Assembly (NCBI RefSeq): GCF_006345805.1
Contig: NC_043003.1
Location: 68,572,001-68,636,000, forward strand
Length of the DNA: 64,000 nucleotides
Source of the DNA: Octopus sinensis
Taxonomy: Eukaryota
Direction: 5' to 3'
The stretch's first letter is position 1; each line of letters begins with the position of its first letter. The notes under the pieces were generated by a model. That model did no database searches and was not told the DNA's origin. It saw nothing but the letters and a program-made list of their open reading frames with translations. Made by a program: the position numbers and the translations under genes. Positions 19,412 to 56,894 of the stretch are shown here, piece after piece.

Positions 19412-19478
<67 letters not shown>

Positions 19479-19539
19479 AGGAGGAATTAAGTTCATTGTT
19501 TACATTTGACGGATACTTTCCCTCATCTTGTTTGTTGTT

Positions 19540-19585
19540 GACACAACGTTTCAGCTGATATACCCTCCAGCCTTCAGCAGGTGTC
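19540..19585 (-). ncRNA. Minimal type-I hammerhead ribozyme motif (family 1)
   Basis: Minus strand reads GACAC-CTGCTGA-A-GGCTG-GAGGGTATAT-CAGCT-GAAAC-GTT-GTGTC. Stem I GACAC/GTGTC is perfect; there is one core substitution (A6>C). Confidence 0.75.
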
Positions 19586-19645
19586 TTGGGGAAATTTTGA
19601 ACCTGGTTTCTCATTCCTAACATATTTTTCGATGTTGTTGTTGTT

Positions 19646-19690
<45 letters not shown>

Positions 19691-19804
19691 CAGGTCACTG
19701 CTTAGAATCGAACTCGGAGTATGCCCGTGGGCATATGGCGTAGTGGTTAATAGCGCGGGCTTTTAACCCCAAGATTCCGAGTTCGATTCCAGGCAGTGAT
19801 CTGA

Positions 19805-19858
<54 letters not shown>

Positions 19859-19913
19859 GGAAAAACATCCAGGAATACCTCAGGAATGAGAATCTAGGTT
19901 CGAATTTCCGCAA

Positions 19914-19955
19914 GACACCTGATGAAGGAGGGTATATCAGTCGAAACCTTGTGTT
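19914..19955 (+). ncRNA. Minimal type-I hammerhead ribozyme motif (family 1)
   Basis: GACAC-CTGATGA-AGGAGGGTATATCAGTC-GAAAC-CTT-GTGTT. Core intact, with a 4-nt deletion in stem II. Confidence 0.7.
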
Positions 19956-20031
19956 AACTACAAACAAGATGAGTTCAAATATCTGTCAAATTTAAATAAT
20001 GTAAATACTGTATACATATATATATATATAT

Positions 20032-53627: not shown

Positions 53628-53984
53628 TATGTTTGACTTTTGCTTTATATTTGTACAAGTTGACTCCAAGTCTCACCCAGAGACCTCAAGAGACAACAGG
53701 CTGGAAGTTCATGTTGTTGTTATGCCTAGTGTGCCATATATTTGGGGGGAGTTTTTGGAGTTGTACTAATGATTGTCTAAAAAAAAAATAATAATATTTT
53801 TTTTTTAAACCGAAAATTATGTTTGTTTTAAACCTTGAGATTACATAGAAAGTATTTTGCTTAGGATATGAGCAGTTCCCATGAGCACTATCTTTTGAAT
53901 TTCTGCCATTTTTGGGGTTCCTGGTATCTGAGTTAGGTAGCTATCAGCCCCTTTTGCTATCATTCCCAGGGCACCTATGACGAC
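53626..53984 (-). mobile_element. Second R4/Dong-family 3' end in (TAA)n
   Basis: Minus strand VVIGALGMIAKGADSYLTQIPGTPKMAEIQKIVLMGTAHILSKILSM* plus a different 3'UTR. (TAA)n on both sides. Confidence 0.88.
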
Positions 53985-54115
<131 letters not shown>

Positions 54116-54138
54116 CATTATTATTATTATTATTATTA

Positions 54139-54363
54139 TTCAGATCACTGCTTGGAATCGAACTCGGAATCTTGGGGTTAGTACCTCGCGCTATTAACCA
54201 CTATACCACATGGAGGTTCGAAGTTTCTCTAAGACACTTGATGAAGGCTGGACGGTATATCAGGCGAAACGTTGTGTTAACAACAAACAAGATGAGGACA
54301 AATATCCGTCAAATGTAAATAATGTAAATAATGTACATAATTCCATGTCTCTTAAATATAGAA
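54139..54363. mobile_element. HHR-SINE (family 1) copy with inverted head and forward tail
   Basis: 54139-54210 is the reverse complement of the tRNA-like head. 54213-54363 is the tail, with HHR GACAC-TTGATGA-A-GGCTG-GACGGTATAT-CAGGC-GAAAC-GTT-GTGTT (54233-54278). Confidence 0.85.
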
Positions 54364-54750
54364 CTGAAGAAGAAGTACTTCAATGACAAAGTCGCGAAAA
54401 TAACGGACCAAAAGGTAACTGGATACGTGAAGAATATATTTCTGCTCAATATGCATATTTTACAGCGACCCTCTGTACAAGAAAATTAAACTACAAGAAG
54501 ACATTGTTTATAGAATGTGAAGGAAAAATAACTCAGACCTACATATATCAGCTTTCCTGAAAATACAAAGAAAACACGCAAGGTGCAAGAAAACATAAAA
54601 CTCAAAGAAATAACACTGCCAGAGAAACTCATTACTAAAAGAAACCAACGAAACCTGAGAACAATGACAGCACAATGGTCGGCAAAACTACACTCAAAAT
54701 AACTGAAACAAGGAAAAAGGCTTAAATATAAAACGGTTTAGTTCTTAATG

Positions 54751-54880
54751 TGTTAGTCCCATGAAGAGAATAATACTACTGCTATTTAGCCCTAGGAAGC
54801 AGTAGCGCTTCCTGTCGGCCTTGTCATATTTCCTGTGTCCTTAGGTTTACCTTTTGGTCCGTTATATATATATATATAAT

Positions 54881-54941
<61 letters not shown>

Positions 54942-55302
54942 CTATATTTAAGAGACAAGGAATTATGTACATTATTTACATTATTTACATTTTACGATAT
55001 TTGTCCTCATCTTGTTTATTGTTGACACAATGTTTCGGCTGATAAACCCTCCAGCCTTCACTAGAATTCTAATATGTTTACAATAGCTAGATAGGCATCT
55101 CCAACTAGCAGGCCATACTACTCCAGACTGATAACGAGCAAAGACTCAGAAACTAGTCTCTGGCTGCAGGCTTAGCTAGGGGGAGGTGCTTGTCTCCCCC
55201 TTGTAAATATAAGGGCACAGGAAATGTGTCAAGGCCGACAGGAAGCGTTGCTGCTTCCTAGGGATAAATAGCAGTAGTATTATTCCCTTAATTGGACTGT
55301 CA
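54751..55302. mobile_element. Inverted-repeat element with its own HHR, containing a nested family-1 tail
   Basis: ~100-bp inverted repeats at 54751-54850 / 55203-55302. HHR at 55123-55163. A family-1 tail (54939-55060, minus strand) sits next to the internal (TA)n. Confidence 0.8.
55123..55163 (+). ncRNA. Minimal type-I hammerhead ribozyme motif (family 5)
   Basis: CCAGA-CTGATAA-C-GAG-CAAAGA-CTC-A-GAAAC-TA-GTC-TCTGG. Perfect stem I, palindromic ACTAGT stem III and canonical GUC site; G8>A in the core. Confidence 0.75.
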
Positions 55303-56894
55303 CAATAACTTGACAGTATACAACTACTTTATCGTATCACTACTGCATAAATCTCTCTGAGAGATTTAGAAATGTGTTATTTCTAAGTTTAATTCTGGAA
55401 ATCGTCTAACAAGTTAATGACACAAATAATTCAAAACTTATAGCAAGGTTTTTATGCAGACCTCCCCGTGATTATTGAACGATAGTGTAACAAAAGTCCC
55501 TCCTTTTTCATCATGGACACATCTCAAAGGATACAAACATGAACAATTTGAATGAAATATATACTGAAACGACTATAGTTACAAACTGTAGTTACAAACC
55601 AAAATGGAAACTCTTTCAGATGTACTTTTAACGATACATTCAAAATTAATCGAAATAAAAAAGAAAATGGAGTAACAACAGAAATATATAAAATAAAATA
55701 AATTATTTCTCTGCTTTCAATGAAATCAATAGCGAAAAGACGCGGTGGAAGGAGATACCAAGAACTAAAGAAATATATTAGAAACAAACCAGTAATCAAA
55801 ATGAAAGAACGCCTGAAACAGTCTTTGCAAAACCTTAAAAATATGTCGGATTGAAAATCGACAACAAGTTTTTAATAAAATAACTCATTCCACTCCAAAC
55901 CAAAACAATTTTATCAAGCACTTGATAAAGTGAAAAACGTAACATAGAAATCAATGCTGCGCTAAAAGCAATAGCTGGGAAATTTTCAGTAAGAGGATAA
56001 GGGAAAGCGAATTATTTTTTGGAAGATGAAATTATTCAAAGCGATCAGCTCAGATTTTTAATAATTTCAAGACATGACATTGGCATTAGGTACAATGCTG
56101 CAAATTACAAACAACTGGAATGTAATAGGATAAAAATGATTCCAAACTTTTGGTTAAAATATTCAAAAGGAACATATAACGTGTTAGTGAAGATGTTTAA
56201 AATGAAATACTATTACAACCCGAGCTATATGTGACGAGGTCATAGAAGGGATACTAACTTAGCCGCCAAAACCAATAGAAGAATATATCAGGAAAACTAT
56301 TGTCCCATAATCTGGATCTCTACAAGCAATACGATCATAATTGAAACATCATTGCAGGGACGAATTAAACTTACGGAAGAAAGTATTTCCAGAAGAGCTG
56401 CAAGTCTCATATGGGTGTAAAGAGTAATTACAAATCAACAAAAACATAAACGAAGAGTGTACCAAGATAAATGAGAGCCACCAGACATACAGGTCCTGGG
56501 AGTATTAGTTCTGAGTAAGGTAATATGCTACAAGAAACTTTATGATGAGAATATCACAAATAAGTTTGGAGATACAAAGTAAAAATGAGAGTCCTAACAG
56601 TTAAACATTTCTATTAGAAGCGGAAAATTACAAAGGAAATTCTTCATTTCCATTTTCTGCTTTACGCTGACATCTTTAAAAGCAGGTCGAATAGAATAAG
56701 ACTTCGATACAAAAGTTACGGTAAGACAGCCATCTTTTGTATATGAACGGACTAAAAATGTCTGCTGTAAATTATAAATTAGTAAAAACAACTCTGATTG
56801 TACGTACATTTGCCAAGCAAACTGATGTGAGACTCGGTTAAAAGGATGCGCGAACGCAACTTTGAAGAAAGATACAAAATTAATTTTTCTAATA

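Follow-up and report, generated by a model that had tools for sequence, protein, structure and literature searches.

A tRNA-like head and a hammerhead ribozyme in putative solo pseudo-LTRs of a Penelope-like element from Octopus sinensis: a candidate promoter for RNA polymerase III

The insertions in the window and the element behind them

We analysed a stretch of 64,000 nucleotides of the Octopus sinensis genome (NCBI RefSeq assembly GCF_006345805.1, contig NC_043003.1, positions 68,572,001 to 68,636,000 of the forward strand; hereafter the window), in which four sequences resembling hammerhead ribozymes (HHRs) had been interpreted as tails of a short interspersed element (SINE) with a tRNA-like head. 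The four stretches lie where they had been predicted, and on the predicted strands, within three insertions: a head-to-head pair (19469-20007) and two further loci (53987-54366 and 54934-55059). Judged from their sequence, these insertions are almost certainly solo pseudo-long terminal repeats (pseudo-LTRs) of one autonomous Penelope-like element (PLE). The A box, the B box and the (AAT)n linker were likewise found at the expected places in the right arm of the pair (Table 1). The count of four tRNA-headed copies stands for the ribozyme stretches only, as a complete head running in the direction of its ribozyme is confined to the right arm: the head of the second locus points the opposite way to the ribozyme at 54233, and no head accompanies the fourth ribozyme copy (55024-55060).

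The so-called tail is the first ~50 codons of an open reading frame (ORF): its translation matches the N-terminus of a homologous protein, P0004, and copies elsewhere in the genome run on from it into the ORF. The column majority of these copies is a single open frame of 835 codons, starting from an ATG just before the ribozyme, and natural copies diverge from it by ~7% on average. This majority ORF shares 56% identity with P0004 over residues 11-831 and 43% with P0065, a protein with the Pfam domains RVT_1 (reverse transcriptase, RT) and GIY-YIG, while the closest homologs are 72-75% identical. Pfam gave no hit on a natural 551-aa copy (P0001), and the PDB matches to TERT were weak (E = 0.0027). 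Between RT and GIY-YIG, a region inspected for an extra zinc finger with regard to Penelope/Poseidon versus Neptune and Nematis, there are three scattered Cys only (622, 677, 692).

The head stands directly behind the end of the RT and GIY-YIG frame in 2 of the first 30 relatives. A genome search with that frame yielded 30 ORF loci, among them the query's own, and in 29 of these the stop codon is followed immediately by the head. The unit reads: tRNA-like head, (AAT/AAC)n linker, ATG, HHR, 835-codon RT and GIY-YIG ORF, 29-nt untranslated region (UTR), and head again. Tandem ORF-UTR-head-ORF copies (L240, L392 and L442) display the partial tandem arrangement that gives PLEs their pseudo-LTR, and the other hallmarks of the class are present as well, namely a single ORF with a telomerase-like RT followed by a C-terminal GIY-YIG domain, a minimal type-I HHR in the pseudo-LTR, and inverted 5'-truncated copies with a tail of 30-40 nt on one side. 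The assignment to Penelope machinery rather than to a long interspersed element (LINE) is borne out by this context, but the separate non-autonomous SINE or retrozyme family of the original prediction dissolves, since the same sequence forms the 3' UTR and ORF start of an autonomous PLE.

Exact-match fractions (8/129, 6/56 and 10/42) give rough copy numbers of 15,000 ribozymes, 9,500 heads and 1,900 UTRs. Short copies carry the same polymorphisms as ORF-linked repeats at similar frequencies, with median divergences of 6.0% and 6.4% (55 and 57 copies, leader and tail; the head columns are biased by exact-match selection). With no diagnostic differences between the two sets, the short copies do not appear to form a separate subfamily. 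Contigs from sequencing runs of four organisms (X4, X19, X20 and X22, compared with L224:1140-1760) contain all three of head, ribozyme and tail in almost identical majority letters, which indicates that the PLE family is common to related species. No relatives were found in the viral contigs searched, and no translation of the head among the homologous proteins.

Table 1. Coordinates of the pseudo-LTR features in the window
Feature	Position	Strand	Remarks
Pair centre: palindrome on the 5' hairpin of the head	19720..19735		4-bp stem, 4-nt loop
tRNA-like head of pseudo-LTR, right arm	19728..19800	+	A box 19736-19746, B box 19779-19790; not a functional tRNA
(AAT)n/(AAC)n linker and short leader, 5' UTR before the ORF start codon	19806..19885	+	(AAT)n linker proper 19806-19857
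Right arm ORF start, first ~127 nt from ATG 19886	19886..20007	+	Decayed; short 3' end class; 87% to ORF nt 1-127
Minimal type-I HHR within ORF start	19914..19955	+	Damaged (stem II deletion)
Left arm ORF nt 1-148 from ATG 19614	19469..19614	-	Long 3' end class; 90% identity; tblastn 86% to ORF residues 1-35; carries the 30-40 nt PLE tail and HHR 19540-19585 (core A6 mutated)
Left arm leader, (AAC)n linker, head	19615..19725	-	A-box region of head deleted
Second locus: inverted head and long (AAT)n linker, then unrelated repeat sequence	53987..54212	-	Head 54137-54212
Second locus: ORF nt 11-154	54214..54366	+	HHR 54233-54278 (C3 mutated); long end class
Third locus: 5'-truncated ORF nt 40-157	54934..55059	-	Partial HHR; long end class

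The anticodon-like TTTTAA loop in the right arm, part of the case first made for a tRNA-like head, is a mutation private to that copy, where the family has TACTAA, and it creates the only TTTT of the arm. A tRNA-Lys(TTT) origin, at which this loop hinted, is thereby ruled out. A second B-box-like motif at 19896-19905, in ORF codons 4-7, could be an extra TFIIIC site. The fourth tail copy is bracketed by an inverted pair of 106 bp (87%; 54745-54850 and 55203-55308) resembling a miniature inverted-repeat transposable element of the host.

The (AAT)n linker is also a landing pad for other repeats (L006:336-1280, L082, L102, L121, L144, L153, L178, L180, and 53800-53986 in the window), several of them 5'-truncated at differing points and with RT-related ORFs (zf-RVT, RVT_1), which we take, as a guess only, to be a TAA-targeting LINE of the Dong/R4 type. 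The same genome contains another PLE family, seen as a 945-nt fragment with a Pfam GIY-YIG domain and 3 TTTT runs (L212:6057-7001, minus strand).

The hammerhead ribozyme

The consensus of the four tail copies had been put forward as a complete motif, and its 42-nt core has 934 exact matches (477 and 457) in the 2.72-Gb genome, against 0 for a reversed-pattern control. The core is damaged in all four window copies, in agreement with the lesions originally seen in each: A6 is changed to C at 19540-19585; the copy at 19914-19955 has lost 4 nt of stem II and has a change in stem III; at 54233-54278 C3 is changed to U and stem II has a mismatch; and the copy at 55024-55060 is 5'-truncated with a change in stem III. 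The ribozyme lies in ORF codons ~10-25 and is a minimal type-I HHR with a palindromic stem III, as had been proposed. It matches the minimal HHRs of PLEs (Cervera and de la Pena 2014, PMC4209133) in the extra nucleotide between 9 and 10.1, in G10.1-C11.1 and in the palindromic 15.2-16.2, and the available text of that paper gives no point on which the ribozyme itself differs. Opposite-strand pairs 100-700 bp apart, ascribed to truncated PLEs, are described there as well, and the word tRNA does not occur in the main text.

The check suggested at the outset, an Rfam search, did not return the motif: neither a hammerhead nor a tRNA was present among the 150 of 264 window matches listed, those shown being microsatellite-driven microRNA matches, nor on a near-complete copy of 441 nt. 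ARAGORN likewise found no tRNA in the window. This silence fits a stem III without loop and a decayed cloverleaf.

A search of the genome for a sister family, with a distant homolog as query, retrieved 30 loci that all belonged to the same PLE family, so no covariation is available within the genome. Related metagenome elements provided 14 distinct HHRs with the same layout and different stems; stem II, which was not a selection criterion, pairs beyond shuffled sequences (P < 0.05) in 11 of the 14, and 10 of the 14 have U at the cleavage position. One related element (L281, ~2480-2520) has a variant with an AU-only stem III palindrome in place of the usual one. In the octopus element the cut would fall, by prediction, 70 nt into the ORF (+70). 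The modelled monomer fold (+3.0 kcal/mol, against -13.6 for an alternative hairpin on a slightly longer stretch) is unfavourable, and cleavage would therefore need a partner or a protein.

Ends of the copies

The 3' ends are bimodal: 79 of 191 fall at ORF +120-129 and 77 at +150-164. These are RT-start positions and not the predicted ribozyme cleavage site. Head-to-head pairs combine a long with a short end in 45 of 57 cases and two long ends in none, which fits the tail of 30-40 nt on one side only that is described for PLEs in the available part of bioRxiv 2021.04.23.441226; for Anolis Poseidon, the consulted text of PMC11167929 attributes the tail to internal starts of RT at two sites close to the beginning of the ORF. 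Of 13 hand-picked non-inverted copies, one has a target-site duplication of 8 bp and one a duplication of 4 bp. The 30 HHR-anchored loci contained solo or inverted copies only, with no array of complete HHR units.

The 5' ends were mapped at 90 loci, chosen by their order in the genome among 1,020 exact matches to the head. A ribozyme part was found within 760 nt in 79 of these 90 heads, so that head and tail are linked in most copies, as the original prediction required. The copies end inside the head in 14 cases, within -8..+8 of its start in 67 and beyond in 9; in other words, 67 of the 76 copies that reach +8 stop within this short interval. The rate of truncation in the ORF, where only 30 ends occur over 9,284 nt in 30 UTR-anchored copies, predicts ~5% in the same interval, and the rate inside the head predicts 14%. 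Copies without a detected inverted neighbour behave alike (19 of 24), several of them with plainly unique flanks.

A second set comprised 78 copies that continue into the ORF (60 from the first 100 of 122 matches and 18 earlier ones), all past the RT-start sites. Of these, 64 end short of the head, 3 inside it and 8 at its start, and 3 run into the upstream UTR. Eight of the 11 that reach the head start therefore end there, three of the eight having been followed only to +170 to +228, and it follows that ORF-bearing templates also tend to begin at the head.

The head as a candidate promoter

The tRNA-like nature of the head was recognised correctly from boxes of consensus type: both the A and the B box match the consensus for type-2 promoters of RNA polymerase III (Pol III), while the cloverleaf is lost. 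The head is most like Arg(TCT), with a score of 51 against a shuffle maximum of 33, in a comparison with 27 host tRNA sequences of 6 isotypes only. We infer that it may recruit Pol III. A and B boxes occurred within 400 nt upstream in 0 of 18 related HHR sites (80 metagenome loci). B-box-like matches near six metagenome relatives were in ORFs, were isolated motifs, or belonged to unrelated tRNA-like repeats with their own T-runs, and ARAGORN with relaxed settings gave only noise on these relatives. Apart from this family, the host has a tRNA-Cys cluster (L264), in which six or more tRNA-Cys-like copies lie in a stretch of 3 kb; one of these has an ACA anticodon.

Pol III terminates at T-runs. 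Of 28 distinct host tRNA loci, 16 have a first T-run, inside a 45-nt limit, of just four T, which is consistent with TTTT sufficing and is no proof of it. The column majority has no sense-strand TTTT in 2,535 nt, and none is found in UTR, head or leader. Because AAAA (28-29) and CCCC (7) are retained, this is not a collapse of homopolymers. Natural copies amounting to 136 kb have 49 TTTT runs, and no individual site exceeds 4 of 69 (6%). The number expected is 4.4 by base shuffle (P = 0.009), 3.0 by codon shuffle (P = 0.027) and 4.8 by a pooled third-base null (P = 0.004). All 25 intact related ORFs (450 or more open codons, from a set of 80 relatives) contain TTTT, in 3-21 runs or 0.68-1.96 times the pooled null, and the ten of them with similar T content have a mean of 3.0 per kb. 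As a host control, 11 other ORF fragments have 18 TTTT in 8,979 nt (2.0 per kb), 2 of the 11 without any; 7 of the original 18 rows had been dropped (one frameshifted piece of the same PLE, five repeat or antisense frames and one unrelated fragment).

From these observations, the RNA of the element probably starts at the head. That Pol III makes the protein-coding RNA too is a more tentative proposition, which we hold to be possible. The best explanation taken as a whole, on which our judgement is evenly balanced, would be that the window contains solo pseudo-LTRs whose head serves as a Pol III promoter for an RNA that is possibly the whole mRNA. We tentatively propose an autonomous retrotransposon whose ~3-kb coding RNA would be made by Pol III from an ORF purged of terminators, would be translated without a cap, and would shed SINE-like copies. 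The head, as a type-2 (A/B box) promoter, would fix the RNA 5' end, and the lack of sense-strand TTTT would let Pol III pass through the ORF into the next pseudo-LTR. By analogy with in vitro work on Anolis Poseidon, RT would start internally near the ORF start; starts at the first site would yield the short head-to-tail copies, the apparent SINE, and starts at the downstream site the ORF-bearing copies. The cDNA end would often fold back on the 5' hairpin of the head, producing inverted pairs such as 19469-20007. Cleavage by the HHR may be assisted by a protein, again by analogy with Poseidon, or by a partner. The uncapped RNA would be translated from its A/C-rich leader; CAA-rich viral leaders aid cap-independent initiation, and the G-poor AAT/AAC leader recalls them.

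Several points weigh against this proposal. As 64 of the 78 ORF-continuing copies stop before the head, the key comparison has n = 11. Inverted element pieces lie upstream of 63 of the 90 head-anchored copies, and at these junctions the position of the end is uncertain by as much as 7 nt owing to the palindrome. A further fold-back hot spot, near a weak palindrome at ORF +106..+115, collects the ends of about 12 of 66 ORF-continuing copies. The TTTT deficit is not significant under a dinucleotide shuffle (2.3 expected, P = 0.074); GGGG is absent too, and the relatives are also GGGG-poor (32 observed against 63 expected); and the test was picked after the head had been seen, so it is suggestive and not decisive. 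The sequencing contigs of the four organisms cover head to tail and give no information on starts, ends, strand or level. A Pol III RNA of 3 kb that lacks a cap would still need export and translation. Among PLE promoters, the single one to have been studied, that of D. virilis Penelope, is LINE-like and contains an intron according to the accessible text of PMC2377424, and the part of PMC10886601 consulted argues that Pol III products are limited in length.

The first alternative accepts the same PLE and makes the head passive, or a captured SINE piece of Pol II type, with ends collecting through fold-back or RT stalling at the hairpin and TTTT lacking by chance or codon bias. The 5' hairpin of the head, predicted as RNA at -5.4 kcal/mol, is where the inverted junctions centre, and the weaker ORF palindrome likewise collects ends; its pile-up, however, is ~18%, against 73-88% at the head, and the stronger hairpin of HHR stem II (-8.1) shows no comparable pile-up among ORF-continuing copies. 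The copies without a detected inverted neighbour, which end in the same interval, and the consensus-like state of both boxes despite the lost cloverleaf also weigh against a passive head. The dinucleotide result and a bias of Phe codons to TTC (14 to 6) would suit codon bias, but avoidance of terminators itself predicts the TTC bias. On balance we consider this alternative doubtful. The hot spot at ORF +106..+115 (L393, L398, L403, L411, L436, L438, L444 and L221) adjoins a variable in-frame 9-nt duplication.

Somewhat less probable in our view is a built-in SINE, with Pol III at the head making short RNAs only and the protein coming from Pol II read-through or tandem copies. The cap problem is then avoided, short copies do predominate by the rough copy numbers, and longer precursors are indicated by the copies that extend upstream of the head (3 of 11 among those continuing into the ORF, 9 of 76 among the head copies); the lack of TTTT throughout the ORF and the eight ORF-continuing copies that start at the head are left unexplained. 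An independent tRNA-headed SINE or retrozyme, self-cleaving, perhaps circularising and using PLE enzymes in trans, would agree with the SINE-like, ORF-less form of most copies and with the derivation of animal retrozymes from PLE pseudo-LTRs reported in the available part of bioRxiv 10.64898/2026.07.22.740005, but it is very improbable and largely refuted by the identical sequence within the autonomous element, the shared polymorphisms and divergence, the ends at RT-start positions and the lack of arrays.

The ribozyme and the element class were already known, and the unusual part is the tRNA-like head. Anolis Poseidon PAc (Frangieh et al. 2024, PMC11167929), as described in the sections available, resembles the octopus PLE in its single RT-then-GIY-YIG ORF, its pseudo-LTR, an HHR overlapping the ORF start and a pair of internal RT start sites close to it, which leave a 30-40 nt tail; its HHR cuts 26 nt after the ATG, against the 70 nt predicted here, and those sections mention no tRNA-like A/B-box head. 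D. virilis Penelope would differ by its promoter type. For a promoter of tRNA type within the pseudo-LTR of a PLE, the nearest parallel is provided by the non-autonomous TRIMp3 group (Cassandra, Helenus and Ajax; Kojima 2024, PMC10886601), for which the available text describes a small-RNA-derived Pol III promoter in the terminal repeat and a proposed SINE insertion. These are non-autonomous LTR elements of 311-1263 bp with true LTRs, a primer binding site and a polypurine tract, whereas the octopus repeat is a PLE pseudo-LTR before an 835-codon ORF, with an autonomous RT-endonuclease frame and the insertion structure of PLEs.

Non-LTR retrozymes (PMC7761336; bioRxiv 10.64898/2026.07.22.740005) share the type-I HHR and the PLE connection but are, in the parts consulted, tandem, non-coding and circle-forming; the octopus copies, solo or inverted, are fragments of an element that codes for protein, and the repeated unit is itself coding sequence. 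The terms tRNA and Pol III do not occur in the available text of the preprint. The octopus element resembles SINE2 families in having A and B boxes in a tRNA-derived head, a body of simple repeats and a high copy number, and differs in having no LINE-derived 3' tail and in being part of an autonomous element rather than an independent family. Ohshima and Okada reportedly described three octopus families of tRNA-derived SINEs in 1994, and the schistosome Sm-alpha repeat combines a tRNA-like promoter with an HHR. In the literature searched we found no PLE with a tRNA-type promoter and no retrotransposon mRNA made by Pol III; Repbase, Dfam and supplements lay outside that search and could hold the family. 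The words hammerhead and ribozyme do not occur in the available text of an octopus repeat annotation (PMC13282606).

Autonomous retrotransposons are held to be products of Pol II or of read-through, with Pol III serving short non-coding passengers. Should Pol III use fail, the element would still be a new and abundant PLE family, likely mis-annotated as a SINE. If the proposal is true, a coding element under a tRNA-type promoter would provide an example from nature of a long Pol III RNA that is translated, and its signature, an A/B-box head with a TTTT-free ORF, can be screened for across repeat libraries. It would also offer a direct route by which a SINE may arise from a Penelope element, and the fixed RNA 5' end would help to test the roles of PLE promoters and hammerheads.
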